Notes: generated from the sequence alone by a model not told the origin. A stretch of DNA of 36,787 nt from Reclinomonas americana ATCC 50394 (GCA_048213135.1 PS015042.1:54242-91028), one strand, 5' to 3'; numbered from the stretch's first letter, positions 4,001 through 34,796 are shown. Numbers and translations: made by a program.

Positions 4001-6512
4001 CAGAACCTACAACCACGACACTCAGCACCGCAAACACTCCCTCCGACTCCACCACCACCGTCTCCCGCACACGCAACATCCAGCGCGGCACTGGTGACCG
4101 AGATCGGAGCCGAGATCCACACGGCACCACCGCCCGCAAACTGCCCTCCATTGGCGCTGGTGGCTCCGCCCAGCAGCGCGCACGGCTGACCACTGCATTG
4201 CACTCCGGAGGCGCTCAACGTCACCATGTTGCCGACAAACGTCGAATTCGACAACGTGACACCGCTGGCGTTCAAGATAAACATGGCTCCGCCGCCGACA
4301 TTGCTGGCGCCGTTGGGAGACACCGACAAGTCTCCGTTGCCGCACTGCGAGACGGTGTTGTTGGTCCACGTGCCGAGCGTGTCGCTCACCGTGGCTGCGC
4401 CGACCGAGGAAATGTACACGGCGCCGCCACCAGTGTTCGCGTTCGCCAAGAGCGATGCCACGTTGCGCAGAAACACGCAGCGAGAGGCGGTGAAGCCGAG
4501 GTTTCCGCTGGACGACACAAACACTGCACCGCCGCCGGCCTTGCCGCTGGAGAGTGCCGTCGAGCCGGATCCGACCACCATATTGTCGGTGAAGTTGGAC
4601 GAGGAGAGCGACACGAGAGCGTCGGCCGGCAGTTGCGCCAGCGACACGGCGGCACCGGACGCATCGGTGCCGCGCTTCACGCAGTCGGAGAACGCAGAGC
4701 CACTGACACTGACGGCAGCGAATCGACCGACTACCGAGAGTGCCGACGAGGCCACCGAGCGCACGTGCGAAAACGTACTGCCGGTCACCGTCAGCGAGGC
4801 GGGAGCGGTGGTGGCGGCGGCCGTGGCATCCAACAGCACGGTGCTGTTGGTGAACTGGCAGTCGGCAATCGAAACCTGCGCCGACGCCATTGTCGTCGAT
4901 GTCCAGGATACGACGGGCACGGCGGCCGAGGTGCTGGTGAAAGTGAGACCGCTGAGCGACAGCTGCGACGATTGTTGCACGGAGAGCGCGCCAAAGGTGG
5001 AGGCGGAGAGCGTGGCCGAGGCGGTGGTGGATTGGATGGTTACGTTGTGGCCTGTGAGTAGGGAGAAGGGAGGGGGAGGGAAGGGAGGGGAGATAGAAGG
5101 GAAGGGAGAATGATGAGGGAGAGAGAGGGGGGAGGGAAAGGGAGGGCAAAAGGGGGAAGCGAGAAGGAGGAGAGGGGAAGGGAGGGGAAGGGAGAGGAAG
5201 GAAGGGAAGAAAGGAAGGAAGCGGAAGGAACAAGATGACACGAGAGAGAGCGATAGAGAGGAGGAGGAGGAGGAGGAGGAAGATGAGAAAGAGGACAAGA
5301 ACGAGACAAGATGAGACGGGAGGAGGTGGTGTTGGTAGTGGGTGAAAGAGAGAGTGGCGAAAAGAAGGAGAGAGCAGGATGACGAAGGGATTGAGAGCGG
5401 GGAGACACTGATCGACAGGGTAGGAGAGCAGCGAATGAGGAAAAGGAAGAGGACAAGGAGAGGAGGAGGAGGAGAAGGAGCAGGAGGATGACAAGGATGT
5501 AAGGCAGCATGACAGGAATACTGCATACATGGAGACAGAAAGTGCCGGTATTGGTGGTGGGTGAAAGAGAGAGCGATGGATGAGAATGTAGGAGAGAGAA
5601 GGATGAAGAAGGGAGTGAGAGAGAGCGGGGAGAGACTGAGCGGCAGGAATGGAGAGCAGCGAATGAGGAGAGGAAGTGGAGGAGGAGGAGTCGAGGAAGA
5701 GGAAGGCGATGACTCAAGACGTGATGGCGACAAGATTGGAATGCATACATGGAGACAGGAGGCGGAGGTGTCGGTGGTACAGGGTGGCGAGAGAGAAGGA
5801 GAGAGCAGGAACCCAGATGATAGAGAATGCGCGCGGCCTTGAGAGGGATGATGAGGAAAAATGAGAAGAAGGAGAGAAGAAAGATGAGGAGGAAGGGGAA
5901 GATAATGGAAATGGAGACGACGAGACGGAAACATGAGAGAGAGAAAGAGATCGCGATCGCAAACACCCAGAGGAACGCAAAATACACGTGCCGTGCGTGA
6001 ATAAGCAACAAAGACGAAAGCGCGTGACACATAATCACGCACGAAAACCAACAGCGCAATTCACGAACAGAACACACGCCCGGAATGACACAATCAATCA
6101 TTCCCGCCTCACACTCACCAGTGACCACCAGCTGTCGTCCACTCAGCGTCACATCATACACCCCCGCCTGCATTGTCACCAACAGCGACCACGTCGGTGA
6201 ATCGGCCGCAAATCCGCGCTGAACACACGACGCCATTGCCGCAGAGAATGCACATGCAGGGTCGCTCGTTGCCGGGTCACCGCATGGAGTGCTAGTGGTG
6301 CCTGCGGGTGCCACAAGCACTGATGCACGTGCAAGCGAGTTAGACAATGATGCATGCTCTTGCTCTCTCTTGCTCTCTCGTTCACTCTGTGTACCTTCAC
6401 ACACTGTGCTGGCGGTGAGCGGTGATGGTGGCCGCCTCTGTGCGTCGACACTGAGCATGCACACTGTGGCGCAGGCGAGGAGGGCCAGGAGAAGAGAGGT
6501 GAGTGGCCTCAT
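1050..6512 (-). CDS. Secreted or surface protein with polymorphic-membrane-protein-like GGA[VIL]/FxxN repeats (predicted right-handed beta-helix); multi-exon, 3' part incomplete
   Basis: ATG at 6512 opens a signal-peptide-like MRPLTSLLLALLACATVCMLSVDA. A large exon (~5050-4078) has FTDN..GGGAVF, FLRN..GGGAVY and FVGN..GGGAVW. Many ~50-100 nt exons follow with the same motifs, the last ending GGGAVYLAIINGGSQ|gt at 1050. Confidence 0.8.
5290..5770. repeat. Degenerate ~220-bp purine-rich direct repeat in a Pmp-like gene intron
   Basis: GTGGGTGAAAGAGAGAG at ~5338/5558, GGAGAGCAGCGAATGAGG twice, GCATACATGGAGACAG at ~5523/5743. Confidence 0.7.
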
Positions 6513-7280
6513 CTTTACCCCGTTGCCGCTGCCTGTGCGCGGAGAGTGTGTGCGTGAGTGTGTGTTGCGATGCGCGCGATCACAGAGGGTGTGCACTGTG
6601 CGCACACACACACACGGAGGGTTGTGATGACGTTCAGAGATGAATTTTACGCGCTTTATGAATACTGGGCGTGATGCATGTCGTTCACCACCACTATTGG
6701 GTGTCTGTGCTTGTGCAGCAAGGAGGTGATGATTGCTCGCTTGCGTGGAGACGGCGGCCTCTCAGTTCTTTGGAGAAATGTTCGGGTATGTTACTCAATA
6801 TTACGAGCGAGTATATTCGTGTGTATTGGCAGCAGAAAGCCATTGTCTGGGTATGCTACACAGTGAGCGCGGACTCTCCAAGGCAGTGGCTGTTATCCGG
6901 TGAAGGCGTGAGGCTGTTTATTGAGGATCGATAAATCCAATATCAGCGCTGCGTTCGACAGGCTGCTCAAAAAGGGACAATGTTGGGCTGCGTTAGAATG
7001 CGCCAGGACTCGGCTAACCAGCTGTTCTGGCAGTGGCCGTTTCTCGTGCCTGAGGATCCTTTTCCCATGCGTCGATGTGCGCATGCCCAGAATTTGAGTG
7101 ATCGAAAGACAATTCAAAAGCAGCTGTGCCTTCGGTATGGAAGGTGTACCCGGGCTTTCCTCGCGAGCTGCTGTGACTTCTTGACAACTGCAAGGCCGTA
7201 TAGGGCTGCAGATCCGGATCGATATCAATCGAGTAACATGCAATTGCAAATGCGGAATTACTAAAGTATACATCACAGAT

Positions 7281-7305
7281 CACACAAGCAGATGCTGCTT
7301 GTGTG
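7281..7305. promoter_or_regulatory. Perfect 11-bp stem hairpin ~110 nt upstream of the NAA10 ATG (function unknown)
   Basis: CACACAAGCAG-ATG-CTGCTTGTGTG. Confidence 0.35.
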
Positions 7306-7415
7306 GAGAGTTACAAAGTACGTGCAGTGGAAGGCGACATCCGACCTCTTCCATGCTGTCTCTCTGGTGAATTTTCATTCTGCCTTGACTTTTTTTCGAG
7401 TTCAGTGTGTGAAAC

Positions 7416-7545
7416 ATGGTCAACATTCGTCGCGCTGTGGTCTCCGACCTGATTGACATGCAAGACTGCAACTTGAGCTGCTTGCCTGAGAACTACCATC
7501 TCAAGTACTACATGTTGCGTGAAGGAGAGAATGAGTGTTTGTGTG

Positions 7546-7592
<47 letters not shown>

Positions 7593-9438
7593 TCTGTGCT
7601 GTGTCTCTCTCTCTCTTCTGCACTATTCCTACCTTGTCTGTCTTGTACGGCCAAGGCGGATGGTACGGTACAGCGAGGGGAGGGGGGAAGGGAAAGGGAC
7701 GGGACGAAAAGGGGAAGCGAAGGAAGGAGGNNNNNNNNNNNNNNNNNNNNNNNNNNNNNNNNNNNNNNNNNNNNNNNNNNNNNNNNNNNNNNNNNNNNNN
7801 NNNNNNNNNNNNNNNNNNNNNNNNNNNNNNNNNNNNNNNNNNNNNNNNNNNNNNNNNNNNNNNNNNNNNNNNNNNNNNNNNNNNNNNNNNNNNNNNNNNN
7901 NNNNNNNNNNNNNNNNNNNNNNNNNNNNNNNNNNNNNNNNNNNNNNNNNNNNNNNNNNNNNNNNNNNNNNNNNNNNNNNNNNNNNNNNNNNNNNNNNNNN
8001 NNNNNNNGAGAGAGAGAGATGTCTGTGCTGTGTCTCTCTCTCTCTCTTGCACATTCACCTTGTCTGCTTGTGTGAGAGAGAAGGGAGATGAACGTGCACT
8101 CGTGTGTGCATTGCATCATCACATTGTGATTGTCGGAGTCCACAGTCAATCACACACTCTCTTCTTCCTTCTCTTCCTCTCTCTACCTCTCTCTCTCTCT
8201 TCTGCCTCTCTCGCACTTCGCCTTCCTCTCTCTTTGTCTCTCAAGTACGCACTCTCACTCTTCAACTTGCATGATGCGCCTCTTCTTTCTCGCATTCTTG
8301 CCGTTGCCCTGTTCCATCCCGTCCCTCTCTCTTAAACACACACACACACGTACTCTCTCTCTCTCTCTCGCCCGCTCTCTCAAGCACACTCACCCTGCAA
8401 GTTGCACAAGCCTGTGCTGTCCTGCTCTTCTCCACTTTCTTTCTTTCTCTCTCTCTCTCAAGCACACGCCAGTCATCTTCACCTTCCACGATTCTCCTCC
8501 TCCTCCTCCTCCTCCTCCTCCTCCTCCTCCTCCTCCTCTCTCTCTCTCTCTCTCTCTCTCAAGCACACGCGCGGTCACCTTCACCTTCCATGATTCTCCT
8601 CCCTTTGTCTCGCCCTTGCTCTCATTCCCTCGCCCCTCTCCTTCTCTCTCACACACTCTCCCTCCTCCTCCCTCCCCTTCCCTCCCTCCCACCCAGGTAC
8701 CACACCCTCTCCTGGCCGCAGCTCGGCTACGTGGCCGAGGAAGAGGACGGCCGCATTGTCGGCTACGTGCTGGCCAAGATGTTGCGCCACTCCCCCTCCT
8801 CCTCCTCCACTCCCCTCTCGTTCTCCTCCTCACACTTCTCGCTTCACAGGGACGAGGAGTCGGCGAGTCCGCCCCACGGCCACATCACCTCACTCTCGGT
8901 GCTGCGTTCGCACCGCAAGCTGGGTCTGGCGCGTTCGTTGATGACGAATGCGGAGCGCGAGATGCGCGACGGCTTCGAGTCGCTGTATGTGTCGCTTCAT
9001 GTGCGCGAGTCGAACCGCGCTGCAGTGCATCTGTACTCGCAGACACTTGGATTCCAGTTGCGTGTGAGGGAGGGGGTAGTATAGAGAAGGTGTCGCAGAA
9101 CAGAAGGGTTGTGGGTCGCACACCATGTTCTCACTTGTCATATATAGAGTGGAGGACGTGGAGAAGAAGTACTACGCCGACGGCGAGGACGCGTACGACA
9201 TGCGCAAGCGACTGGCGTTGCGTGCCATCCACCCCGCTCGTCTCTACCTCCTCTTCAAACTCACTCGCATTCCCTGTGTGCGTCAAACAGAGCAAGCGCC
9301 GCGTTTACTCGTCGGCATCCAGACAAGGCGCGAGAGATTGAGGAGCACATCACGTCCGCGTTACCGGGCATCAAGGCGAAGACGAGGGAGTTCCTGGCCG
9401 GTAGTACGGAACGCACGCGGCACTTTATAACTACCTGA
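7416..9438 (+). CDS. NAA10: N-alpha-acetyltransferase 10 (NatA catalytic subunit, ARD1), 5 exons
   Basis: Spliced translation [101 protein letters not shown]. Introns start at 7514, 8781, 9057 and 9217; TGA at 9436-9438. Confidence 0.95.
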
Positions 9439-9706
9439 ACACGTACCACACCGTGAACAGCAGGCAGAGCGCGACCACGGTGGCTATGACAATGAGGTCG
9501 CGCTTCTTGTAGCGGCGAATGCGCTCTAGAACTTTTCCAATGGACGGCATACTTGCTGCGATGCGAGGGGGAATTGAGGGGAAATGAGGGAGGGAGGGGG
9601 TGAGGGAGGGGAGAAGGGATATAGGAGAGAAGAGGTGCCTGCCACTGCTCTTGCTGACAGAGAGAGACCAATTGCAGTCAGAGCGGACGAGCGAGCGTGC
9701 TAGCGA

Positions 9707-9738
<32 letters not shown>

Positions 9739-12879: not shown

Positions 12880-12916
<37 letters not shown>

Positions 12917-13378: not shown

Positions 13379-13404
13379 CGAAATCGAATTCGAATTCGAT
13401 TTCG
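13379..13404. repeat. Perfect 26-bp palindrome upstream of GOS1
   Basis: CGAAATCGAATTCGAATTCGATTTCG equals its own reverse complement. Confidence 0.9.
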
Positions 13405-14354: not shown

Positions 14355-16528
14355 ATGACGGATTGGAGCAGATCGTCGCCCGGTCTGTACTCCGGTCTGT
14401 ACTCCGCGCGATCGCGCGTCACCGAAGGCTACGCCGAGTACCTCAAGTCATTCAAGCCGAGTTGCGCCACTCTCCATCTCTCTCTCCCTCTCTCCACACA
14501 CACTCATCGCCCGCGCGCGCGCACATCAGAGAGCTTCAGAGACGCCGATCTCATCCCCTCGCCCGCCGACGATCACGGCCGCGTGCCACGCACACGCTTT
14601 CTCTCGTTTGGCGCGCAAGTCTCTCTGATCTCCACCGAGCTCAATGGATTTTGTGCAGGCGAAGGGTGCGCTCGAACATACACTCATCTCTCGTTCTCTC
14701 TCTCTCACGCCTCACGCCTCACTCCCACCAGTGTCAACTGCAACTATGTGGGTGTGCTGGAGAACTCGGCCAGAGACATGACGACTCTGCCACGCACCTT
14801 CAGCGGTGAGTTCCGGACCTGCTCTTCGAATATTTGTTTGATAGCTCTCACAGTTCATCTAGATTGCGTCTTCCAAATCGTGCCCGCACAACGACAAGAG
14901 GCGCAGCGGAAGCTGCAGAAGCGCCTGCTCGATCTCAACCTGCCTGACTTTGATCCAGAGCTGCCGCCTGCCGGCTTGTCCGCAGATCTGGTCGAGGAAC
15001 TGCGTGGATTGGTGGTCCGTCCGTTTCTTCTTCTTCTTGCTTTCTATGTCCCCACTTCTCAGCCGAGGTTCGCGCAGGCCGATGCTCGTCGCGAGATTCG
15101 CGAGAATGCGTTGGAGGAGCGACGATCGGCGACGCGCACGGTCAAGTACGGCGACACGCTGCAGTTGCGACATGTGCGCAGTGGCAAGTACGTGACGGTC
15201 CTCCGCGATGTGTCGGTGTCGGATCCCGATGCGAGTGCGGTGCTGCTGTCGGCGTACTCGACCACCGGGTCGGCGCTGGTGGTGGTGCCGGCGTCGCAGA
15301 CACGCATGCACGGTGACAAGGTGCGCGTGCAGGATGTGGTCAGCTTTATGGGCATGCGATCGCGTCTCTATCTGCACGTCTCCGCCGATCGCCTGCCCAA
15401 CGATCCACGACACGAGATCAACGCGTCGCTGGCGAGCAGTGATATTCAGCTGCGGCACTACGCCTCGTCGGCCTCGTTGACCGACGAGGCCGACCTGTTT
15501 CAGTTTGGTGAGTGCGGGAGTTGTGTTGTGTGAAGGAAATCCGTTGCTCACCGTGCGCTGTGCTCCATTCAGGGTCGGTGTATCGCCTCACACACATGCA
15601 CCGCACTGCGCAATTGTGCGTGGCGCCTGTGAACTTCCAGACCATGCGTTGCGTTGTTTTTGAGGATACGAACGAGGAGACGTTCTCGTTCAAATTTCTT
15701 CTGCCTCATTGCTGCAGCATTCGCACGCTCCAATGTGGGCGACACGCTCCATTGTTGGTTTGAGTTGGAACGCGAGGATCCCACCGTCGGTTCGTATCGT
15801 TGTGCCGCGACATGACGCACGTGAATCTCACTTGGCGTCTACAGGCGGCTCGATGCAAGCGGGTCTCAAGTTCCGCATGCGCTGCTACGCCTCGAATCTG
15901 TTCCTCGCGGCCACCCCGGTGCAGGCCTCTGGTGCGTGTTGTGGTCGCACCGCTTGCGAGTCGCAGTCGCTCACTGTCCTCTGCAGATCCATCACCCGCG
16001 CGACTGCGTGCCGCCAGTTATTTTGCTGCGTCAGGTGCGTGCTAAGAGAGAGGGAAGCCCGGTAGAGAGTGTGTCACACCTTCCTTTCACTCTGGTTCTG
16101 TCGTGTTTCCTGCATTCGTGGCGGGTTCTCGCTTTCTCTTCCGCCCTCGTGGTTCATGTGAAAAGAGTATGCTGTGCGCCTCTCTTCCCTTCCGTCGTAT
16201 CCTCGCTCTCCGTCCGAGTGTTCTCAGCTGTTGGCCAGCTATCTGCTGTGCAAATGTGTGTTGTGCCTTACTTCCCATCCTTCGTATGTTCGCCTCCTTT
16301 CCTGCACTCTCCGTCCGTGTGGTTCGCCTATCTTGCGTGCAAAAAAGTGTCTTCTGCGTCTTTCATCCCTTTCGTCATGTCCTCGCTCTCCGTCCGAGAG
16401 TAGGCAGCTATCTGCGTGCGAGAAAGTTCGTTGTGCGCCTTGCTCTCCGTCGCCCTTTGCACCTGTTCATGCGTGCGTGGTCCCTCTCACTCTCCCTCCC
16501 TCTCGTCCCTCTCCTCCCTGTCCTCCCT

Positions 16529-16575
<47 letters not shown>

Positions 16576-17126
16576 TCGTCTCGTACGACGACGACGACGA
16601 CGGNNNNNNNNNNNNNNNNNNNNNNNNNNNNNNNNNNNNNNNNNNNNNNNNNNNNNNNNNNNNNNNNNNNNNNNNNNNNNNNNNNNNNNNNNNNNNNNNN
16701 NNNNNNNNNNNNNNNNNNNNNNNNNNNNNNNNNNNNNNNNNNNNNNNNNNNNNNNNNNNNNNNNNNNNNNNNNNNNNNNNNNNNNNNNNNNNNNNNNNNN
16801 NNNNNNNNNNNNNNNNNNNNNNNNNNNNNNNNNNNNNNNNNNNNNNNNNNNNNNNNNNNNNNNNNNNNNNNNNNNNNNNNNNNNNNNNNNNNNNNNNNNN
16901 NNNNNNNNNNNNNNNNNNNNNNNNNNNNNNNNNNNNNNNNNNNNNNNNNNNNNNNNNNNNNNNNNNNNNNNNNNNNNNGTACGTCGTCTCGTCGTCGCGT
17001 ACGTACGTTACGTTCGTCGTCGTCGTCGTCTCCGTCCGTCCCGTTCCGTTCCGTCCTCGTTCGTCGTCGTCGTCGTCGTCGTCCGTCCTCCTCCTCCTCC
17101 TCCTCCTCCTCCTCCTCCTCCTCCTC

Positions 17127-17188
<62 letters not shown>

Positions 17189-20100: not shown

Positions 20101-23100
20101 GCAGATACTCTCCTTGCTGCAGTCGTTGATTGTGCAAGGCTTCTTGTCTCAGTCGGAGCTGGCGCCGCTGGTCAGCATTCTGTGGGACATTGCCGACGGA
20201 CGCACAGATCGCTACGGAGGTGTGTGCTTCTCTCTTTGCATGTTCACTCAGTGTGTACTCTCTCTGAGCTGGTGATCTCTTCTGGCATTTTGCAGGCACC
20301 GTCGGCAACCTGTCGCTGCGCTTCAGCTCCAACGAGAACAATCACGTTATCATGGAGAGCAAGCTGTTGAGTCTGCGAATCCTGTCGGCAGTGTTGGATG
20401 TGGAGGTCGACCGACGACAGCAGATGCTGCTGGAGTACTTTAAGACCAACGCCACTGTGAATGATCTGGAGGCCTTTTTGCATGTTTCGTTGATGCACAC
20501 TACTTGTGATGGTGTCATGTCATCTCTCGTGTGTTGCTTACTGTCGTCGTAATACGCCAGATGTCTGGATTGAGTGCGCATCCGGACGATGCCGCCGAGG
20601 TGCTCGTCGATCTGCTGCAGTATCCCATGCCCGAACTGAATCTGGAGGCGTGGGTCATGCTGCACAAGTACCACTCGTGCGTAGTGCATCACCGCTCACT
20701 TTTTCGTGGACGTGTGTTTGCGCACACTCACGTGTCTGTCTGTCGCAGCGTGCTCATGGCCACGCTCGCGCACTGTCGGCAGCAGCTGCACATTTTCGTG
20801 TCTCCATCTGTCCTGCAAACGACGTCGACCATCAACATGCTGGTGGACCAGCTGCATATTCTCGCCAGCGACAATCCCACATGGATGGATCACGACGATG
20901 TGATGACGCAAATGGCTGACGTGATTGACAGGCTGTCGATTGGTGCGTGCGAAGGGCAGAGCGGTTGTGGGAAAGATCCCTAACGTCATGCTTTGCATTG
21001 CAGAAATGGAGGCACTGCATGGCGAAGAGCTGCGCTGTGCACAGGCTGCGATTCGCATGCGTGGCGCGCAACTGCTGGTCATTTTGCGCTTTGTGCGCCC
21101 CTTGAGGTCTCGTCGCTCAGTATCCTGCTTTGTATTTTCGCTGTTCTCTCGCTCACTCCCTGCTCAGCGGTCAAGAATTCTTGCCGCTGATCGAGCAGGG
21201 CAATGCCAAGCACAAGCTCCTGGTCACCATCTATCGCTTCCTCGGCAGGGTTTGTACTTGTTAGATTGCATTTGCCATCAGCAGGCGACTATTCCGCTGA
21301 CTTTCTCGATTGATTCTACAGTATGTGGCCGACAATGTGGAGGCTCAGCTGGCCCTGTTTGCACCATTCTTCAACATGTTCTACCAGCATCGAAGGTATG
21401 TCTCCTATTGCACAGGTGCCCCCCGGTCTCCTCGACATTGTACTCACCTTGTGAGTGTCTGACTGACAGCCTGCAAGTGGGCTTTGAGGAGTTCGCCACG
21501 ACCGCGTTCAAGGACAATTATCGCCTCATCACTGAAGTCGTACCGCAATCGCTGCTGAATGACTGCACTGCCGCCATGGCGCATGTGCACGGTCACGGAG
21601 CCTCAGACATGATCCGGCTGCTTCGCATGCTGGTCGCTGCCAGTGGTGTCCCTGTGTACGAGAACCAGCTGACGATTGTTCAGCGCCTGCGCTCGGTCAG
21701 CGATCACTTGATTCTGTTCCGCACGCCGGCGGAGCGCGAACGGCGGTACGATCAGTACCTTGCACTGATGCACGCGCGCAGCTGTGTCTTATCGTGTCGT
21801 GTGAGCAGGCGGCGACTTATGGAGGCCGTGCGACGCGGTGAACCGCCACCAGACCCGAAGGACGAGGGCATTCTGGAATACCATGTGGAGTTGCTGCGTC
21901 TCATTGCCGGATGCGGCACTGGCGTCACGTATGCAGTGCGTCTCAAGATCTCAAGTTGCATGCATGCAGCTCGTGACATGTTTCTGACTGTTCATGCACA
22001 GACGGAGGGACTGTGCCAACAAATGCTTCCGTTTGGTGCGGTGAAAATGAGGACCATCTGCCGGAAAGAGTTGATCGCTCACAAACTTGCCTGCTTGTAG
22101 AGGAGGCCGTGGACATGTTTCTGGAGGACGGCACGCTGCTGTACATTCGCAGCGCGTTGCTCGAGTTCATTGATGAGGTACGCGCTGGTGCACTGTGTTA
22201 TCTTTGTTTTCTTGCAAGCGTCCAACTTGCACATGTAGGTGTACGTGCGCACTGAGTTCCAAGTCCCCAACGCCAACTTCTCGGCACCAATGTGCCGACT
22301 GCTGGAGGTGCTTGGCTCGCACCTTACGAGGTTTGAGGAGCGTCGAGCCCGAGCCCGTACGCTCGCTACGCGAACACCACCACGCTCGCCTATCGGGTAC
22401 TCGGCGCAAGAGACTGCTTCACCCACTGGCATGCACGATGAGTTTCGTGTTCTTTGTTTTCAACCAGCACTGGCAGTCTACCCTCACTGCCCGCTTACGA
22501 TTTTTGCACAACCAAACAGCGAGTACTTGCTGGCCCGACCACCCAGCGCCGACAATGTGGGCGCTGCGGAGGGCAGCAGTGAGGATTCGACTGACACGAG
22601 CGACGTGCTCGGTACCGATACCGAACTGCGGTCGTATGTGTTTGGTCGAGTGGTGCCGCTGCTGGAGCATTTCTTTGAGAAGCCGCGCGTGTCTGGCCGG
22701 CCGCTGCCGTTGCGTGCTGAGAAAAAATGGGGGAATGCATCGATGATTTTTCTCATCCGTGACTGAACAGTCACCAAGTTGTTATTGTGGACATGCTGGC
22801 GACGCATCTGCTGCGACTAAGGAGGTTGGCGAAAAAGAGCAGCGAAATTTGCTGCGTACGGCGAGCCTTGCGGCACTTGGCTACGCGTGGCTGGTCGACA
22901 CTGTCGTTGGACGGCGCCTCGGGGGTACGTCCCCCATCGAGGTTCATTTCTTCACTGTGCGTGATTACTGAGGTGGGCTTCTGCAGGATATTGATGTCGA
23001 AGATGGCGCTTTTGCGAGGGTGGCGAGCAGCACGTCCCTCGATTTCTCTGAGATCGGTCACAAGCCGCAGTCGTCGGAGGAACTGATGCGGGAGCGATGG

Positions 23101-26100
23101 CACTACTTCTTGGACACGATGTTGAGGGAAGCGCTGGTTGCGTGCTCCGTGATTCACGCTCTCTCACGATCTTGTATTCGTAGTGTGGAGGGCCGTGAAG
23201 AGCAATGCGTGACGGATTATGCGCGACTACAGCAGGTGTTTGCGGATCGGAGAGCCTTGAATGCATTGCTAGGTGTCATCAGGTTTGGAATAAGATGCTC
23301 CTTGGTCTCCCTACCTCTCATGCTTCTCAATGTCTTGTCTCGATGCAGTGCGCAGGCCAACCAGGCGGCGCACATGGTGACAGCGCTGGAGCTGCTCAAG
23401 AGGATCGCAGAGTCGGGCGATGAGCAACGGGGAGCACTGCTCGCCCAGGGCGCAGTGGAAATGGTGCTGCGCATGTTGACATCGACGCTGGTGGATGATG
23501 TATTGGTGGCGGTTCTCGATTTCGCCATTGCGCTGCTGGGCGACGGCTATCGGCCGTGCCAGGTCAGAGTGCTTTTCTGTTTGGTAGGAGGCGCTAAGGT
23601 GAAGGACACTCACCTTGCTGATGCACAGGAGCGCTTCTTCCGCGTGTGTGCCGCTACCAATATGTATGAGTTACTGTTTGTGAATCTGCGACATGGTCTC
23701 GACAAGACGGCGCAACAGTTTGCGGAGCGGCGGCAGCTTGAATTGTACCAGGCGCTGTTGCTGGACGATGTGGATGAGGATGAAAGGTGCCGCTTGAGAG
23801 ATAGAAGGGAAGAGAGAGAGAGGGAGAGAGGGAGAGAGGGAGGGAGGGAGGGAGGGAGGGAGGGAGGGAGAGGGAGAGGGAGGGCGAGCGAAAGAGGGAG
23901 AAGAAAAGAGGGAGAGAGAGGGAGAGAGAGACGGAATGGAAGGCAGGCAGACTGACAGACAGACAGACACACACACACACACACAGACACACAGACACAC
24001 AGAGAGGGAGAGAGACACACATGTAGAAGAAAGAACGAAAGAGAGAGAGAGAGAGAGACATACAGACAGACAGACTGACAGAGAGAGATTCAGAGGCCGA
24101 GCCAGCGAGACAGCAAGGATGAAAGTGTGACAGAGACAGGGAGATGGAGTGCTTGTCTATGAATATCCTCAAGTGCCTGACACGCACGGGCGCGCAGTGA
24201 TCGCCTGGATCTGGCGTCGTGGGAGCGCAAGCACAGGTCGTTTGCGCTGCAGATTTTGCGATTCTTGCAGTTGCTCGTGGAGGGTCATTACACCGACATG
24301 CAGAGGTTCTATTCGCATCAGGGCGAGTGGCAAGTCAACGTTGCGCTGGAATGTCGGTTGTGGGGCTGTCGTGGCGAGTTCTGACGAGAGCCACGCAGAC
24401 CTACATGATGGAGATGCTCGGCCAGTTTTTGGCGTCAATTGAGCCATTCCGCGGTGTCGATGCGTACCCTCTCTTTGTGCAGGCACTGGCCACCGCCACC
24501 GAATGTGTACAGGGTTTGTGTGTGTGTGTGTGGCAATTGGGTTGACATCTGCTCACTTTTACTCTTGTTTCCACACCCAGGTCCATGTGCAGCCAATCAG
24601 GTAATGTCATGTGCTTTTGGTTGTCCTTCTTGCTATTCTCACCTTGTGTGCAGGATGGCGCACTTAATTCCGAACTGCCGTACATTATCGACCGTGTGCT
24701 GTGCGATGTGGCGGATTGGGAACACCCGGAGCTCGCGCTTGTGCAGGTTGGACATCAAATTCCATGCATGCACAGGTTGGAGTCATACATTGCTTATGCT
24801 CTGTCCTCAGGTGGAATCCCTCAAGTTTTTGATGGCGTTGCTCGAGGGCGACAATGAGGGCCATGCTGTGCGCCTGGCACAGTCGATTGATCTGGTGGCG
24901 TTGGTGCGTATGCGTGACTCCAAGCGTGTTGTTGATAAAGTGACGACCTGAACGCGAGTGATGCAGTTGCACACTGGATGTCGCATTCACGAGTTGCTTG
25001 ACACCAAGCCGTCGAAGCGCGACAAGATGGAGATGGCGGTGATGGAACGCGATGCACTGCGCCAGCATGCACAGGAACTGCATCAGATTGGCGTGTACAC
25101 GTTTATGTTGCTGGTGAAGTTGAAGGACTTTGTGCCGAGCCTGGTCCAGGGTGCAGAGGTGAGCGAATGGCCTTAATAGGGTCGCATACACGGAATCTCA
25201 CGTTGTATCAATTCACAGTGCACTGTGGCCAGCAGTGGCAAGTTCAACGAGCGTGCTCTACAACTGGCGCTGTTTATGCAAGCGGTGGAGTCTGTAGAAA
25301 TCATCCGAGACGGCGAGCTGTCGAGGGTGCGACAGATTACTTCCACCTCTCATCCCGGCTGGAGTTGCTGATCGTCATTTGCAGGTGTACTTTGAGGTGC
25401 CATCCATCTGCAAGCACCTGTCCAATCGCACCTTCCAGCGCTGGGAGGACACGGTTGACCGCGACACCTCAACTGCCAAGGTGGAGGGCCTGATTAATGA
25501 GATTTCACCGTTTGTGCGAGAGATGCGGCATCGAGTTGCGTCGTCGCGTGGCAGTGTTTCGTGTCGTCTGTTTCTCCTGTCGCTTATGCATTCCGTGCTT
25601 TTGCGCAGCGGCGCATTGAAAGACGCCCGTTCCTCAAGGTGCTGGTGGCTCGTCGAGTCGTGCTGAACCGTGTCTGTTACGGCCTGTGCGTGTTGATCAA
25701 CCTGCTGGTCCTCTTCGGCTATCAAGTGAATCAGTACAATGACGACAGCACGCCAGAGTTGCGTGCTTGGAGGAAGGGGAATTATTGTTGGATGTCGACG
25801 AGGCTCACTTCCTGCCACACTGTGCAGTATCATCGACTACCGTGCGGCGGGTATCGATGTGCTGGTCACGGTGCTGGGGGCGGTGCTGATGCTTGGTGGC
25901 GTGTTGATGCTGCTGGTGTATTTGGTGTACGAGGGCTGTCTGCTGCAGTTGTCGAGGTGGACGCCGCCGTTGGGACCGGTGAGTGATAAAAGGGAAAGGC
26001 AGAGGGAAAGGGGAAGAAGGGGAAGGGGGAAAGGGGGAAAGAGGAGAAGAGAGAAGGGAAAGGGGAGAGGAGAGAAGGGAAAGGGGAGAAGAGAGAAGGG

Positions 26101-28983
26101 AAAGGGGAGGAAGGAAAGGAGGAGCGGAACGAAGCGGGCGAAAAGGAGAGGGAGAGCGCGCCATCTGGCAAAAAGAGAGGAGTGCGGCAGCGCCGGGGTC
26201 AATTTGGAAGTTCGATGAAGGCGCTTGCCATGTGCCTCTCTCGACCGGGTATTAGAGTTGCCGGAAAGGCTATTTGTGTCCATTTCCGATTTGTCACGAC
26301 GACTTGTGGGTCAACTATAGTTTTTTTCGTTGTGGTGGCGGTGATGAGAGAGGAAAGGGGAAAGTGAGAGGACGGGGCAGCGGGAGGGAAAATGAAAAAA
26401 AGGGTGAATATGGGAACGGGGGAGGAGAGAGGAGAGAGAAAAGAAGAAAGGGCGATGAGGAAGATGGAGAGAGGGCAAGGGATAGGGGGAGTACAAGAAA
26501 GTCGGGGGCATAGTGCAAGGGCGTGGGCGGAAAGGAGGAAGGGAAAGAAGAGGGCGAAAGAAAAGAGAAGGGAGAGGAGGGGAAGGGGGAGGGAGAAAAG
26601 GGGAAGGGAGAGGATGGTGCAGTGGGAGGGACAAAGAAGGGTGAATATGAGAACGGGGGAAGGCGAGAAGGGGATAGGGGAAAGTTCGCAAGGGAGAATA
26701 TGGGAAAGGAGAATGGGAGAGAAAAGGGACTGTGGGAGGGGAATGGGAAGGGGGGTCGGGAAAGGAGGTGGTTGATGGCGGCAAGAACCCAAGAAGAAGG
26801 GGAAGAGTTGAATATGATTGTAACTGAGGATCCGTTGATGTCTTGCAGAACACGCTGGAGGATGTTGACCACGACACGAAGTTCTTCATGCGCGTATTCT
26901 ACCTCTACGGAACCGATCCACAGACGTTGTACAGAGTTACGGGTGCTCTTGCGAAAGCATCCCCTGGAGAGTTCCTAATCTTCACGTGATCACGCAGATT
27001 GTTTATTTGGTGTTTGTTGGCCTCGGACTGGGCGTGTCGCCGCTGTTCTACTCGCCATTGCTGTTTGTTGCGTATAGTCGTGTTTGCCAGCTGCGACGCA
27101 TTTGCTGACTTGAAAAGTGAACACAGGAACTGATCAGCATGACGCCGGTGCTGTATCAAGTCATCCGGAGTATCACGCTGAACAAGTACTCGCTTTTGAT
27201 GACTGTTGCGTGGAGAGCAGCGGGCGAGATAAGAGATAATGCACGGCGACTCATTCGTGCTGGTTGTGCAGGGAATTCTGGCGTTCATTTTGTTGTATGT
27301 GTTTGGCATTTTTGCCTTTGGTGAGTGTCGCGCACTCACCGCTCTCAACTTTGTGCGACAGTTGCTCACTCACGTCTCCGCGCATGCAGTGTTTTTCAAT
27401 GACATTTTCATCCCGACGGTGGACATGGACCGCAAGTTGTGCAGCACGCTGTTCGACTGCACCATCACTCTGCTCAATCTCGGGTTCGCTAGTGTTCATC
27501 TCCTTGTCCACCCGGTTGAGGCCACTCACTGTCCGTTGCCATTGACGCAGGTTGCGACGTGGAGCCGACTTTGAGGGCTTTTTGAATCTCAATCTCAACG
27601 CCGGTGTGTGCTGCGGCTGTGATCCTGTCTGAGTGTCGCTCTATTTGTTGACTCTGCACACCACACAGGCTACATTATCTTCCAGCTGCTGTTCTTCATT
27701 GTGCTGGTGGTGCTGCTGCTCAAGTACGTTCTCACTCACAGCAGTGCCCTCGTGTCATTCTGTTTCTCGCTGCTGACTCTTCGCCGGGCAGCTTGATCTT
27801 TGGTCAAATCCTCGACACATTCGGCCAGCTGCGTGCTGCGCGTGACGAGGTGCTACGCGACAAGCTGGGCAAATGTTGCGGCGCTGTGTGCGAGAGAGAA
27901 TGTGGGTTGTGTGTGCTCATCGTGATGGTGGCAGGCTTCATCTGCAATTTGGATCGCGCGGTGCTCGATCGAAAGGGGGCAGGGTTCACGGAGCATGTAA
28001 CGAATGAGCATAGGGTGAGCGAAAGGGGGCGGAAAGGGAAAGGGGTAAAGGGGAAAGGGTGTGAGAGAGGAGAGAAGAGGAGAAGGAATTGAGATGAGAG
28101 AGAGAGAGAGGAGAAGGAAGGCGTTTTGTCAAGGAAGGGTGAAATTTGAATGGTGGGAGAGAAATGGGTTGAACTGGGAAGGGAGACCGGAGCAGGATCG
28201 ACGAGGGGAAGGCTGGAATGAGAGAATGGTGTGAGAGGTAAGAGAGACAAGAGCAGGATCGAGTAGGGGAAGGCTGGAATGAGAGAATGGCGTCAGCGGT
28301 TAGAGAGAGATAGACAGAGAGGAGAAGGGCAGAAGGGGGCGCTCCACCAAGGAGGGGTGAAATTGGACTGGCGGGTGAGAGGAATGGTGGGAGACAGGAA
28401 GTTTGAACTGGGAAGAGAGACAAGAGCAGGATCGACGAGGGGAAGGCTGAAATGAGAGAGCGAAGAGAGGGCCGAAGGAAGACGCTTTATGAAGAAGGGT
28501 GACGTCTGAGTGTGGAAGGGCGATAGTGCGCACGAGATTGATAAAGTGGGGAAGTCTTCGAGCAGCGAGCGCGGGATGTTGGAGAGACAGAGAGAAGAGG
28601 GAATGAGTTGAAGCGAGAAGAGAAAAGGCAGCAGAAAGTGTCATTGGTTTCCTAACCATCGTCGCCTGTGACAGGTGCACTCGTACGTCAACTTTTTGAC
28701 CTGCGTCACGGTGAAGCCGAAGACGGAGATGGACGGCATGGAGTACTATGTGCTGCGCTGTGCGTTGAGCGAGTGTGTACACTCCGCATCCACTTCCTTG
28801 TACTTAACTGTGTCGTGATCAGCGCTCGAGCAAGGCGACTTGTCGTTCATCCCGCAAGGTCGCAGCATCTCGCTGGAGCGACGCACTGTCAAGACCGTCA
28901 GCACACAGGAGCAGGGGGCGCAGTCGTTGCTGACATTGCGACGGCGGCGTGGCAATGCAGCAGCGGCGCAGGATGACGACTGA
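14355..28983 (+). CDS. ITPR: Inositol 1,4,5-trisphosphate receptor family (IP3R/RyR superfamily) intracellular channel, about 60 introns, divergent
   Basis: Suppressor/MIR motifs (FLSFGAQVSL..NGF, DCVFQIVP, VKYGDTLQLRHVRSGKYVTV, IRHCTTGRYL); RIH motifs (NLPAGLRAAVCDFL, YHVELLRLIAGCGTG..TEGLCQQMLP); RIH-associated ILRFLQLLVEGHYTDMQ and TECVQGPCAANQ; SVEIIRDG..VYFEVPSICKHLS; six TM helices; LLNLIFGQILDTFGQLR and C2H2 CFICNLDR..HVTNEH; TGA at 28981-28983. The start codon is tentative. Confidence 0.93.
16170..16450. repeat. Degenerate ~180-bp direct repeat in an IP3R intron
   Basis: TCCTCGCTCTCCGTCCGAG at ~16200 and ~16380, each followed by CAGCTATCTGC. Confidence 0.65.
28120..28500. repeat. Purine-rich degenerate tandem repeats in an IP3R intron
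   Basis: GAGCAGGATCGAnnAGGGGAAGGCTGrAATGAGAGA at ~28190, ~28251 and ~28423. Confidence 0.75.
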
Positions 28984-29660: not shown

Positions 29661-29879
29661 ATGTCTGCGCGAGCGGGGTCGTCTGCGGGCTCCTCTGCAG
29701 CTGCGGCAGTCATGTCGGAGGCGTGCAAGTTTCTTGATCCGGAGCTCGTCGATGAGGTCAAGAAGAAGTATACGAATTTCGAGACCAAGTACACGAATAA
29801 GGGCAGCATTGGGCAGGGGTGAGTGTGGGGAGAGGGAGGGAGGGAGAAGGGTGAGGGAGNNNNNNNNNNNNNNNNNNNN

Positions 29880-29958
<79 letters not shown>

Positions 29959-31717
29959 ATCATCACATCTGACAGCATCATGCATTCAAACACGAACTCG
30001 ACCTGCCTCTCTCTCTCACGCACACACACACACCACGCAGTCTCTCTCTCTCTCTCTCTGTGCATCATCACATCCAGCGTGCATTTCGCACTATCCTCTT
30101 TGCCCTCTCTTTCTCATGTTCTCTCTTTCTTCTTCTTCTTCTCTCCTCTCTCTCTCCTCTCTCCTCTAGAGAGTGCGAGAGAGAGAGAGGGGAGAGCGCG
30201 AGGAGAGAAGAAGGATAAGTGGGGGTAAAGACGACAGCGAGACAGTGTGCTGAGACAGAGAGAGAAAGAGAAGAGATCTCGCGCGCGCGCGCTCTCTACT
30301 CTCTTACCTCTCTCTCTCTATGCAGCATCGCATCTGGCAGGGTTGCTTTCAAATACTCTCTTCTTCGTCTTCTTCTTCTCCTCCTTCGTCATCTCCTACT
30401 TTTTCTTCTTCTTCTTCTTGTCTCTCTCTCTCTCTCTTGCTCTCCCCTCATTCACCCGTTACTTTCTTCTCGCGTGCAGCACGTATGGCGACGTGTACAA
30501 GGGCTCTGAGAAGTCGACCAANNNNNNNNNNNNNNNNNNNNCAAGGCCGTGGCTGTGAAGATGGGAAAGCGAGGCGGTGGCGGTGGGGCGGCTGATACAG
30601 AGGGCATTCCATTGTCGGTGTGCCGAGAGGTGTCGGTAAGTGTTCATTGGCGTGTTTTTCTCTCTGGGTTGAGAAGTGTTGTTGACCGACGACACGAAGC
30701 CTTTCTTGTCGTCAGCGTGTTGATGGCCTCCTTCTTCCCTCTCGCTCTCAATTTGTGATTTGAAGCGAGACATTCATGGCTCTTTCCGCGTGCAGCATGT
30801 GTCCTCCTCTCTCTCCGTCTCTTTTGACTGATCTGAGCAACGACAAGAAGTGGCTTGCGCAGTTGGTTCACCTTCTTTTCATCGTTGTCTGCTTGTGGAT
30901 GGCCTCCTCGTTCCCTCTTTGTGTCGGCACATGCAACCGTTGCGCTTTTGTTCTCTTCCTCTCGCCCTCTCTATTGACTGAGCTGAGCAACGGCAAGAAG
31001 CAGGCAGTGCGTTGATAGATTGTTCCTTTCCTCTCGCTCCCTCTGCGTATCGAATCTTCCGAGCCGCCTTTTCCTCTTCTCTCTCATTTTGACTGGGCTG
31101 NNNNNNNNNNNNNNNNNNNNNNNNNNNNNNNNNNNNNNNNNNNNNNNNNNNNNNNNNNNNNNNNNNNNNNNNNNNNNNNNNNNNNNNNNNNNNNNNNNNN
31201 NNNNNNNNNNNNNNNNNNNNNNNNNNNNNNNNNNNNNNNNNNNNNNNNNNNNNNNNNNNNNNNNNNNNNNNNNNNNNNNNNNNNNNNNNNNNNNNNNNNN
31301 NNNNNNNNNNNNNNNNNNNNNNNNNNNNNNNNNNNNNNNNNNNNNNNNNNNNNNNNNNNNNNNNNNNNNNNNNNNNNNNNNNNNNNNNNNNNNNNNNNNN
31401 NNNNNNAGCAACGGCAACAAGCAGGCAGCACGTTGATAGATTCTCCCTTCCCTCTCGCTCCTTCTGTGTGTCAAATGAGTGCAAGTGTGCATCTTCCTGA
31501 ACTCTTCCTGTCTCTTTCTCTCACCGCCCTCTCACTCCTTCTCCCCCGTCGCAGCTCCTCCGCGAACTCAGCCACCCCAACGTCATCAGCATCGACGAGG
31601 TGGTGCTGAAGCCCGAGAAAGACAATCCTGTGTGGGTCGTGTTCGAGTTCGCCAGCCACGTGCTGGATGTTGCGTGGGAGGAATCCGAGATTGTCGCACC
31701 TCGCTCTCCCTCCCTCA

Positions 31718-31751
<34 letters not shown>

Positions 31752-33367
31752 CGTTCTCCCCTGCCCGCCGCAGACCTACATTTTGAAGCAAAAGGGCCAG
31801 CAGTGGCCGGAGATGGGCATTGTCAAGTCGATCGCGTATCAGCTGCTGTCCGGCGTCGCGTACCTGCACAGCCACTGGATCATCCACCGCGACCTGAAGC
31901 CACAGAACATTCTCATTTTCGACGGCGAGCGCCTGGGCGACGAGAAGGGCGTGGTGAAGATTGCCGATTTTGGTCTCGCTCGCGATTTCATGGATCCGCT
32001 GCGCCCGCTGTCGCGCGACGGTGTGGTGGTGACACCGTGGTACCGCGCCCCCGAAATCATGCTCGGCGCGCATCACTACACGCCGGNNNNNNNNNNNNNN
32101 NNNNNNNNNNNNNNNNNNNNNNNNNNNNNNNNNNNNNNNNNNNNNNNNNNNNNNNNNNNNNNNNNNNNNNNNNNNNNNNNNNNNNNNNNNNNNNNNNNNN
32201 NNNNNNNNNNNNNNNNNNNNNNNNNNNNNNNNNNNNNNNNNNNNNNNNNNNNNNNNNNNNNNNNNNNNNNNNNCCATTGATATGTGGGCCGTCGGCGCCA
32301 TTATTGTCGAGCTGATCACCACCGATTATCTGTTTGCCATTCAGAATGTGTCGGCGCATGAGCCGACCGATGATCAGCATCGGAGGCAGCTCGGGCGCAT
32401 TTTTGAGGTGAGTGGTGGGAAAGGGGAAGGGGGAGGGAAGGGGGGAAGGGGAAGGGGGGAGGGCAGGGGAAGGGGGACGGGGGAAAGGGGAGAAGGACGA
32501 TGAAGAGAGAGAGAGAGAGGAGGACGCGAAAGTGAAGGGAAAGAATACAGTGGGGAACTTGCAAGAATGGAAATTTGATTTGCATTCGAATTCCATCTCC
32601 ATTGGGTTGCTGCGCCGTGGATTTAGTTGCACTGTCCCTTCCTCTCTCGCTCTCTTTCTCCCTCTCTCTCTCTCTCTCAGTCTCTCTGTCTCTCTTTCTC
32701 CACCGTTTCTGTGCTCTCTTTTCTTCGTGCCTGCGTCGCTCAGCTTGCCGGCTGCCTGCAACTGTTGCATGCCCCCTTCTCGCCACTTCCTCTCCTATCT
32801 CTTTCCCACTTCTCCCTCCTCTCTCGCTTGCTCTGTCTGTCTGTCTCTCTCTATCTCTCTGTCTCTCTCTCCTTTCTTTCTCTCTCGTGCTCTCTAAGTA
32901 TGCTTTCTTCTTGTCCCTCACCCGCTTTTCCTTCCTTTCTCTTCCCTACTCCGTTTCCCTCAATCTCTTGTCCCACAGGTGCGCGGCAAACCCACCGTGC
33001 AAGAGTGGCCCGACCTGGAGCGCATGCCGCTGTGGTCGCGGTTTTGCGAGCTGCCCGGTGACACGTGAGTGCCGCCGCTTTCCTCGATCCGTCCTTTTCC
33101 TTTCTCACTCCCTCGCAGCCGCCCGTTCAACTCACGACCATTCGCCTTTGTGCAACGGCACATTTCGCGCGCCGGCTTTGACCTCATTATGCAGCTGCTG
33201 CACTACGATCCGACGCAGCGCATGACGGCGGCCAAGGCACTTGAGCACGACTGGTTCAAGGAGCATCCGCTGCCTGCGGCAAAGTTGCGTTTCATCGCCC
33301 GCACGTTCCATTGTTTTCTGTTGCTCATCGTTGGTGCGGGCGCAGCGTGTTCGAGGGCGGAAAATGA
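29661..33367 (+). CDS. CDK8: Cyclin-dependent kinase, CDK8/CDKE (Mediator kinase) type
   Basis: IGQG|TYGDVYKG, VAVK, GIPLSVCREVS|LLRELSHPNV, WIIHRDLKPQNIL, VKIADFGLARDFMDPLRPLSRDGVVVTPWYRAPEIMLGAHHYT (CDK8-like activation segment), LLHYDPTQRMTAAKALEHDWF..PLPAAN-VFEGGK*. ATG at 29661 or 29712. Confidence 0.85.
29880..29957. repeat. (TG)n microsatellite in CDK8 intron 1, one of many GA/CT/CCT/GT microsatellites in long introns
   Basis: Perfect TG run beside an N gap. Confidence 0.95.
30815..31470. repeat. Degenerate tandem repeat in a CDK8 intron, interrupted by an N gap
   Basis: TTGACTGnnCTG(AGCAACG..AAG) recurs at ~30823, ~30974 and ~31089; AAGCAGGCAG..CGTTGATAGATT lies on both sides of the gap. 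Confidence 0.7.
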
Positions 33368-33516
33368 TGAATTATTTGTTAGGAAAAATTGTATGTTTCA
33401 GGAATTGTGTGCTTGTAATATTCGAGGGGTTGAGATGGAAAAGAGAGAGAGGAAAGAACAAACGCGCCATCATCCACGAGTCGCGAGACAAAGAGGCGCA
33501 GCGAGTCGGTGCGCAA

Positions 33517-33996
33517 TTACTGGCAGCCGGCCGGCTTGGGAGCAGTGAACAGCTTGCAGACGTAGCCGAGCATGTCGTCGAGCACGGCATCGTTCATGCT
33601 CTCGGTGTGGACACCGTTGACGACGACCCACGGCTGTCGGGCAGTGCAGGTGAGCACACAAAGGGAGAGGAAGAGACGGGGAAGGAGAGACGGGAAGCAG
33701 ACAGACAGACAGACAGAGAGATAGAGACGGAGAGAGTTGGGAGGCAGGGGAAGCAGGCCTAAAGAACACACACGCACATGCACAAACAGACAAACAGATA
33801 GATACGAAAGAGACAGGAGGCACGGGAAGCAGGTTTCAGCAATACGCACGCACGCGCACATACACACAAACAGATAGACACATAGACAGACAGAGAGAAA
33901 GCGACGAAGAGGTATTGGAGGCACGGGCAGCGATACACGTACTTACACAGAAACGTACACACAGCGAGAGTGAGTGTGTGAGTGTGAGTGTGTGAT

Positions 33997-34033
<37 letters not shown>

Positions 34034-34796
34034 CATGTATTCGATGCACAAGGACGGGTCAACGAACCACGTACTGGTGAGCCGGGCGCAGGGCGCTGGT
34101 CTTCTGTGCCATCTCGTGCTCCCACTGATTGCCCTGCAGAGGAGGTGAGATGGATGTAGAGGGAACGGGGGAAGGGACACCACCGACACGCACCTGAGCC
34201 GAGGTCATGCACGAGGAGATGCTGCTCCAGTTCAGGCCGTACTTTTGCGCGCACACAGAGCCGACCTGCTCACAACAAGGATGGGCACGGAGACGACTCT
34301 GCTGATGGAGGAGGCTTGTGTGTGTGTGTGTGGACGCAACGGTGGCGGGGCTGTCACCCTTCTCGGCGCACAGAATGAAGTTGAGGGCCGTGTTGAAGGG
34401 GTTCAGCTTGAGGGCGCAGGTCTGGCAAATAGAGAGAATGAATGCGTGTGGCGGCGATGACGTACGAGCGAGAGAAGAGGTACCTCCATGATGTTGCCCT
34501 GGCACTCCGACGGACCGTGCTGGCAGTTAAACGACCAGCTTCCGCTGCGCGAGGGCAAAGGAATGCGTGAGAGGGAGAGAAAGGAAGGAGGCACAGGCGG
34601 GACAGGTGCAGGCTCACCTCGAGTCACGGTACTCCTGGGCATTGCCTGTAATGGTTGAACAATGGGAGATGAGTGCAAGAGGAGAAAGACGTTGAGGGGT
34701 GCGAGGTGCACAGTCAACAAAGCGAGAACGAGGGACACATTTTCATGCACAAGAAGGAATGAATCCTCACCGTATGGCACCAGGGTGATGTTCAGG
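33517..34796 (-). CDS. IFI30: Gamma-interferon-inducible lysosomal thiol reductase (GILT/IFI30) homologue, C-terminal exons
   Basis: Exons give LNITLVPYG|NAQ, FNCQHGPSECQGNIME (GILT signature CQHGxxECxxN), |TCA..FILCAE, CAQKYGLNWSSISSC, GNQWEHEMAQKTSALRPAHQYV|PWVVVNG..VCKLF..GCQ*. Confidence 0.9.

Follow-up and report, generated by a model that had tools for sequence, protein, structure and literature searches.

How a spliceosome recognises an exon–intron boundary whose conserved block lies one base further into the intron than at neighbouring boundaries is the question raised by a 36,787-nucleotide stretch of Reclinomonas americana ATCC 50394 DNA (GCA_048213135.1 PS015042.1:54242-91028; hereafter the window, with positions counted from its first letter). 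An earlier note on this DNA had listed 17 introns whose 5′ splice sites (donors) begin GTTGCG, had claimed that the preceding exon base is never G, and had proposed that such donors are read in a register shifted by one base. Every listed site was found in place and on the strand given, with a preceding base of T at seven, A at five, C at five and G at none. The sites are used as donors, their introns are genuine U2-type GT-AG introns, and their use is linked to a base other than G at position -1; the class is real and apparently undescribed. The best explanation, to which a probability of about 0.45 is attached, is that they represent a second, abundant, intron-defined class of 5′ splice site of the form H|GUUGCGU(G), with H standing for A, C or U.

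Four of the sites fall within an Naa10/ARD1-type N-acetyltransferase gene of five exons (approximately 7416-9438, plus strand), the model of which matches an expressed sequence tag (EST)-derived EukProt protein labelled Reclinomonas americana (P0004, 201 residues) at 200 of 201 residues, the single difference being K/E at residue 137. GTTGCG opens all four introns, the base before it being T, T, A and C, respectively. Intron 1 (7514..8696; donor cat|GTTGCGTG, phase 2, with a run of N inside) corresponds to the EST junction KYYM|YHT; intron 2 (8781..8849; gat|GTTGCGCC, 69 nucleotides, in frame and free of stops) to LAKM|DEES, the 23 residues of its read-through being missing from the EST-derived protein; intron 3 (9057..9147; cca|GTTGCGTG, 91 nucleotides) to GFQ|VED; and intron 4 (9217..9290; ggc|GTTGCGTG, 74 nucleotides) to RLA|ASAA. 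At each junction, the pair chosen is the sole GT-AG pair within ±15 nucleotides that gives the P0004 protein.

Three further sites are placed by collinearity with homologues. In a CDK8-like kinase gene recognised from its homologues (~31.5-33.4 kb, plus strand), removal of the in-frame intron at 31669..31773 (gat|GTTGCGTG, 105 nucleotides) leaves 46 residues from an FE motif to HRDLKP, compared with 44 in P0124 and 81, by our own count, on read-through. Splicing of the last intron of this gene (33284..33345; aaa|GTTGCGTT, 62 nucleotides), which clears a frameshift, yields PLPAAN-VF, resembling PLPGINVF in P0169, the sole match to PLP..VF among 120 fetched homologues, all limited by a length filter to 312 residues. 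In the C-terminal channel region of an IP3/ryanodine-receptor-like gene (~14372-28100, plus strand), read-through of the in-frame intron at 27875..27934 (aat|GTTGCGGC, 60 nucleotides) places exactly 20 surplus residues between two blocks aligned to solved ITPR2 chains; taking out the 60 nucleotides restores collinearity, at a weak E = 0.16, and each of the 12 best structure matches is an IP3 receptor aligned at this C-terminal position.

Reading frame accounts for most of the remainder, with 11 of the 15 plus-strand sites necessary to clear a frameshift or an in-frame stop; the four in-frame, open sites are supported by the EST (8781), by homology (27875, 31669) or by signals only (14461). Within the IP3-receptor-like gene, frameshifts are cleared by the introns at 15648..15717 (tgc|GTTGCGTT, 70 nucleotides, with no in-phase GT within ±45 nucleotides), 25535..25608 (cga|GTTGCGTC, 74 nucleotides), 25758..25827 (aga|GTTGCGTG, 70 nucleotides) and 27205..27271 (act|GTTGCGTG, 67 nucleotides), and read-through stops by those at 22709..22770 (gcc|GTTGCGTG, 62 nucleotides), 24340..24398 (aac|GTTGCGCT, 59 nucleotides) and 27067..27126 (ttt|GTTGCGTA, 60 nucleotides). 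For 15648, a computational parse of the window, described below, favoured a rival model at 15735-15844; frame and an apparent resemblance to IP3 receptors favour 15648, with no support from tool searches: comparison of short exons with Pfam and PDB yielded neither an IP3-receptor nor a GILT match in favour of 15648, 15790 or 34340 (minus strand). The frameshift at 25535 demands an intron, and frame cannot separate this donor from an in-phase GTTTCGTG donor (GTTTCG) at 25556, 21 nucleotides further on; both follow a base other than G, and the two are possible alternative 5′ splice sites, seven codons apart. The putative first intron of the gene (14461..14529; cga|GTTGCGCC, 69 nucleotides), with its donor, a CTCAT branch-like motif and a CAG acceptor, is the weakest plus-strand case. 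This intron and that at 8781-8849, in different genes, are identical over their first 12 bases, equal in length and CT-rich; past base 12 their likeness is no better than that expected of low-complexity composition. On the minus strand, the intron following a beta-helix-repeat exon (3784..4077; gat|GTTGCGTG at 4077) was called by the plus-strand-trained parse, its acceptor being uncertain, and a putative in-frame intron of a small gene (34266..34340; acc|GTTGCGTC, 75 nucleotides) is suggested by signals only, the parse having read through it and Pfam giving no match.

The parse was a gene-structure dynamic programme that scored codon log-odds, GT/AG ends and intron length, gave extra credit for a branch motif and a YAG acceptor, and was blind to the donor beyond GT. 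In this form it called 54 plus-strand introns, among which GTTGCG was the top donor hexamer (5/54, against 0.43 expected; P = 7e-5), the introns at 9057, 24340, 25758, 27067 and 27205 being among its calls; after a hexamer table had been learned, GTTGCG rose to 10/59, with 22709 recovered. The same procedure called 11 introns on the minus strand, one of them GTTGCG. A fully self-training variant, which called ~100 introns on both strands, was discarded.

P0004 lacks the residues of four of the 17 introns, as expected of sequence removed from mature mRNA, the other 13 being assigned on frame, homology or signals; 15 intron sequences are all GT...AG, with a CTCAY- or CTGAC-like motif in 12. GTTGCG introns are otherwise ordinary, with lengths of 59-105 nucleotides except for two long ones, a CTSAY-like branch motif and a CAG or TAG end. 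The donor motif of U12-type introns is of the RTATCCTT type; all 17 introns here start GTTGCG, and a U12-type assignment was rejected. Descent from an introner or other mobile family was likewise rejected, there being no lengthwise similarity: pairwise local scores, taken with the splice signals excluded, did not exceed 12.0 bar one, with a shuffle maximum of 14.0 (20 shuffles), and the single pair above the shuffles (14461 and 31669, score 18.5) carries CT-rich runs in both members.

GTTGCG is strongly strand- and position-specific. The window contains 31 copies, 24 on the plus strand and seven on the minus, which is no window-wide excess, shuffled sequences containing 23.0 ± 4.6 copies and at least 31 in 8/100; of the copies inside the three gene spans of the plus strand (17,607 nucleotides in total), 18 are sense and four antisense (binomial p = 0.004), and 15 of the 18 sense copies are called exon–intron boundaries. 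The comparison hexamer GTGCGT occurs in the same spans 12 times in sense, six of these being called donors, and 10 times in antisense. Three G-preceded copies on the plus strand were not shown to be donors. That at 27551 lies directly after an acceptor-like CAG; 23137, the sole G-preceded GTTGCGTG within a gene, lies 16 nucleotides inside a doubtful intron (23121-23183) and was rejected as a counter-example, because when joined to the sole good acceptor at 23183 it meets an immediate stop; and G|GTTGCGGA at 1659 stands in a region (1000-2156) with a coding signal of at most ~11 bits on both strands.

The relation between the last exon base and the donor class was examined in a hand-curated list of 66 donors, merging the 33 named in the earlier note with the trained parse. 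Five parse calls were left out (9404, after a stop codon; 15735, 15919, 25556 and 28775, clashing with better-supported alternatives), as were six at 28.1-31.5 kb, where there is no supported gene model, and long-intron calls except 7514, 23787, 25979 and 32040; our own reading at 16035 was added. Possible donors outside the list include three of the form G|GTGAGT (17339, 27321, 32408) and four of the form T|GTGCGT (16473, 18741, 22957, 25686). Counted as G to non-G at -1, GTTGCG donors stand at 0 to 17, parallel GTT[G/T/A][C/A]G donors at 1 to 5, other GTT donors at 4 to 1, ordinary GTRMG donors at 16 to 8 and weak-motif donors at 10 to 4. The GTTGCG class differs from all other donors together (0/17 versus 31/18, p = 1.9e-6) and from the GTRMG donors (0/17 versus 16/8, p = 9e-6); the difference persists without 11 uncertain parse calls (0/17 versus 27/11, p = 4e-7) and in the unedited trained parse (0/10 versus 21/21, p = 0.003). 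These tests are conservative, because false parse calls lean towards non-G, and the size of the contrast is due mainly to a strong enrichment of G at -1 among the other donors. With uncertain calls set aside, weak-motif donors (6/6) and other GTT donors (4/4) are always preceded by G, while T at +6 of ordinary donors is found in 6/6 after non-G versus 8/16 after G; G at -1 and the strength of the intron motif are thus anti-correlated, as in a two-class system. Donors of the GTGAGT and GTAAGC forms are also in use.

On these counts, the claim that ordinary donors mostly follow G is borne out (16/24 GTRMG donors), and the estimate that GTTGCG accounts for roughly a fifth of introns agrees with 17/66 in the merged list and 10/59 in the trained parse, rising to 23/66 when the parallel forms are included. 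That these parallel forms follow non-G held for five, the sixth, a G-preceded donor at 1212 (minus strand), standing without a gene model. The five, all on the plus strand within the span of the IP3-receptor-like gene, are 19692..19748 (cga|GTTTCGTG, 57 nucleotides, in frame; trained parse, signals only), 20484..20560 (cat|GTTTCGTT, 77 nucleotides; read-through stop, trained parse), 22442..22519 (tga|GTTTCGTG, 78 nucleotides; trained parse, with a weak upstream coding score), 26936..26997 (aga|GTTACGGG, 62 nucleotides; read-through stop, the parse having used a 1019-nucleotide intron to the same acceptor instead) and the doubtful 23121..23183 (gat|GTTGAGGG, 63 nucleotides, in frame and open; signals only), where read-through is just as possible.

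When offset by one base, the ordinary G|GTGCGT(G) and the new |GTTGCGT(G) have the footprint G-K-T-G-C-G-T in common. GTTGCG donors carry T at +7 in 13/17 and G at +8 in 8/17, mirroring +6 and +7 of ordinary donors, in which T stands at +6 in 14/22. If -1 of the GTTGCG class corresponds to -2 of the donors with G at -1, where G occurs in 3/27, an observation of 0/17 is unremarkable (P = 0.135). Pairing with U1 was assessed using the canonical 5′ end AUACUUACCUG (PMC4856993), with pseudouridines as U; an Rfam search of the window gave no family at threshold, and no U1, U5 or U6 gene in the 36.8 kb. With this canonical U1 assumed, the GTTGCG class forms on average 4.3 pairs in the canonical register and 6.1 when slid by one base, so that the shifted register gains pairs, and 6.6 in a bulged register. 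Predicted duplexes with canonical U1 average -6.8 kcal/mol for ordinary donors and -7.0 kcal/mol for weak-motif donors after G. The shifted-register proposal of the earlier note is supported in part: the one-base-slid footprint and the absence of G at -1 agree with it, while a weak duplex with canonical U1 and the lack of any pairing preference in the exon bases, both quantified below, do not.

In the explanation favoured here, a donor seems to need either an exon-final G, in which case the intron side may degenerate, or a strong intronic motif of the GCGU type, and GUUGCGU seems to be the usual solution for an exon that lacks the final G. One seven-base footprint, G-K-U-G-C-G-U, would be read in both classes, its first G being supplied by the last exon base in G|GUGCGU and by the first intron base in |GUUGCGU. 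The recognising RNA would thus sit one position deeper in the intron with cleavage remaining at the first GU, and may be U1 at first, the GCGU block then being passed to U6 with a one-base offset. We infer both the sharing of the footprint and the identity of the small nuclear RNA (snRNA) that reads GUUGCGU from these alignments. A more general statement, that a quarter of the spliceosomal introns of R. americana use /GUUGCGU, in a register one nucleotide away from that of the other donors, is put forward more tentatively still.

Several observations weigh against this explanation. Five genes in a single 36.8-kb window supply all the data. The EST evidence concerns protein sequence, and at each of the four Naa10 junctions an identical protein would result if the boundaries were moved by one base to ends other than GT-AG, the codons there being synonymous or identical; this offset was rejected solely because introns of the form TT...GG or TT...GA would be needed. 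The parse is crude, being exact for one of the four EST-proven introns when blind and three when trained, and missing in-frame introns, and the list of 66 donors was partly built from the calls of the earlier note itself. Compared with exonic GT by codon position, where G precedes in 31%, 8% and 34% of cases at positions 1, 2 and 3, zero G in 16 phased sites has P = 0.015, seven of the 16 being phase 2; the -1 position of the class looks unselected or mildly G-depleted, not dramatically purged. The predicted duplex with canonical U1 has a mean of -1.0 kcal/mol in the GTTGCG class, very weak in any register, the bulged register pairs at least as well as the shifted one, and the exon bases at -1 and -2 are without bias towards pairing in the shifted register.

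The poor pairing of canonical U1 with the commonest donor hexamer would be accounted for by a U1 (or U6) that has co-evolved with the donors, or by a second such RNA, directly complementary to GUUGCGU or its GCGU block; GUUGCGU would then rank as the canonical site with the best match, and G|GUGCGU as a close match dependent on the exon G. The C at +5 in 17/17 GTTGCG donors, and at +4 in 13/22 ordinary donors, has no partner in canonical U1, and the preponderance of GTTGCG among non-G donors (17, against 6-8 GTRMG) would be odd for a merely weaker site. Set against this proposal, GTGAGT and GTAAGC donors are used too, and few eukaryotic RNA sequences are as conserved as the 5′ end of U1 and the ACAGAGA box of U6; a variant snRNA is accordingly judged unlikely, if the strongest of the competing accounts.

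A bulged register, in which U1 would pair G+1 and U+2 normally, the U at +3 (or +2) would bulge out and GCGU would pair in its usual places from +3 to +6, appears improbable. Bulges at +3 (or +2) are experimentally established in human cells (PMC4856993), and the pair count (6.6, against 6.1 for the shifted register) is in its favour. In this arrangement, however, G at -1 should add a pair and be favoured as in ordinary donors, where it occurs in 16/24, yet it occurs in 0/17 of the GTTGCG class, and the duplex predicted with canonical U1 has almost no stability here either.

Similarly doubtful is the proposal that no special register is involved, the pattern being a lineage-specific version of exon-G/U5-type versus intron-motif/U6-type classes in which an extra U is tolerated and the -1 base reflects ordinary compensation and codon context. 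Two separable classes have been described across eukaryotes (PMC9803359, PMC11732430), weak intron motifs are found here only after G, ordinary donors after non-G show the T at +6 noted above (6/6 versus 8/16), and the neutral-background test reaches only P = 0.015. The exactness of the motif (the same GTTGCG in all 17 donors, 13 of them with T at +7) is nevertheless left unexplained, as are the displacement of GCGT by exactly one base and the fact that strong ordinary donors often follow G (16/24) and GTTGCG never does. An annotation artefact or chance, by which GTTGCG would not be a donor or the true donors would lie a few bases off, is highly improbable and already largely refuted: the hexamer count is no higher than in shuffles, another in-phase GT lies within ±45 nucleotides at 12/15 plus-strand sites and many sites have a second GT at +6/+7, yet the EST protein covers four sites and homologue collinearity three, the donor-blind parse exceeds expectation (5/54 versus 0.43), the strand bias is 18 versus 4, and a GT at +6 is out of phase by 5 nucleotides.

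The window is intron-dense eukaryotic DNA with short introns and a G+C content of ~50% over its full length, which includes 13 N runs (20 to 902 bases each, 4,070 N in all); there are many microsatellites of the (CT)n, (GA)n and (CA)n kinds, several of them within introns. The IP3-receptor-like gene, with roughly 50 short introns, is recognised by Pfam Ins145_P3_rec (E = 1.7e-20) and by alignment to solved IP3 receptors, and is very divergent, alignment being confined to the ligand-binding exon at the N terminus and one short C-terminal block. A full HMMER search with a 309-residue RIH-like open reading frame gave just two weak matches, one of them a repeat protein, among 1.84 billion representatives, and IP3-receptor homologues were therefore unusable for exon mapping; a MIR-type exon used as query for longer homologues gave none at E ≤ 0.001, and a whole-frame read-through (stops as X) compared with Pfam and PDB recovered the N-terminal ligand-binding exon alone. 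Within this gene, a likely additional in-frame intron, not listed in the earlier note, is seen at 15017-15082 (plus strand; G|GTGGTCCG or G|GTCCGTCC ... GCGCAG), the read-through of which adds ~31 surplus residues relative to the solved ITPR3 N-terminal domain; both candidate donors have a weak motif and are preceded by G. Long purine-rich, low-complexity stretches with GGGAGG/GAGAGG-like repeated units at 23750-24150 and 25980-26870 (plus strand) translate as open E/G/K/R-rich frames, where the parse calls introns of 411 and 1019 nucleotides. For the kinase, no EST protein of the same species was found, homologues being limited to 35-70% identity.

On the minus strand, a gene for a repeat-rich protein with GGGA(V/M)-type repeats and a weak Pfam Beta_helix match occupies 2427-6236, probably extending toward position 1; its antisense strand carries a long open frame of high codon score, an indication that open-frame length alone misleads in this genome. 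A small gene of ~6 exons at 34059-34903 (minus strand) encodes a product with a CQHGPSECQGN motif that resembles those of GILT-type thiol reductases; Pfam gave no match for the exon tested.

Should the register-shifted, intron-defined class proposed here be borne out, a non-canonical register or a co-evolved U1/U6 would count as a mainstream means of recognising introns in a deep-branching lineage of eukaryotes rather than as a rare exception. An organism with such a site as its commonest donor hexamer would offer a natural system for how U1, U5 and U6 share the reading of donors, whether the 5′ end of U1 or the ACAGAGA box of U6 is able to evolve along with splice sites, and how exon-defined and intron-defined donor classes originate. 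Gene finders that use a single donor matrix will misplace such boundaries in jakobid genomes, as illustrated by the donor-blind parse on the EST-proven introns (one of four right).

In the literature searched, nothing was found on R. americana nuclear splice sites, and among the papers listed as containing GTTGCG or GUUGCG (with or without a further T/U) none was, by title and abstract, concerned with splice sites. Another jakobid, Andalucia godoyi, is reported to have 134 introns in 864 curated genes, all GT...AG (PMC7050145); it belongs to the same protist order and shares the GT...AG ends, but is intron-poor, whereas the Reclinomonas window is intron-dense. The mammalian shifted-register 5′ splice sites (Roca and Krainer 2009, as cited in PMC4856993) resemble the GTTGCG class in having U after GU, a consensus block displaced by one base with cleavage still at GU, and poor canonical complementarity that improves on sliding by one. 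In humans, all validated non-canonical registers together are put at ~1.5% of 5′ splice sites (PMC4856993), the shifted class being rare and its helix long and stable, whereas here the class makes up 17/66 donors, with a predicted canonical-U1 helix near 0 kcal/mol. The bulge +3 (or +2) register (Roca et al. 2012, as cited in PMC4856993) is similar in its one extra nucleotide between GU and the equivalent of the +5 G, and equals the shifted register in pair count, but predicts a benefit of G at -1 that the GTTGCG class (0/17) does not display. A parallel in the distribution of information between exon and intron is the division of 5′ splice sites into a U5-loop-1 type (AG//GU) and a U6-ACAGA type (//GURAG), as summarised in PMC9803359 and PMC11732430: there too, G at -1 and intron-side strength are anti-correlated, matching the restriction of weak intron motifs to donors after G in the window. 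GU-U-GCGU is one base longer than the GURAG type, and G at -1 is excluded from it, not just less needed; the trade-off between exon and intron is itself known, and the novelty is the form taken by the intron-defined class, GT-T-GCGT.

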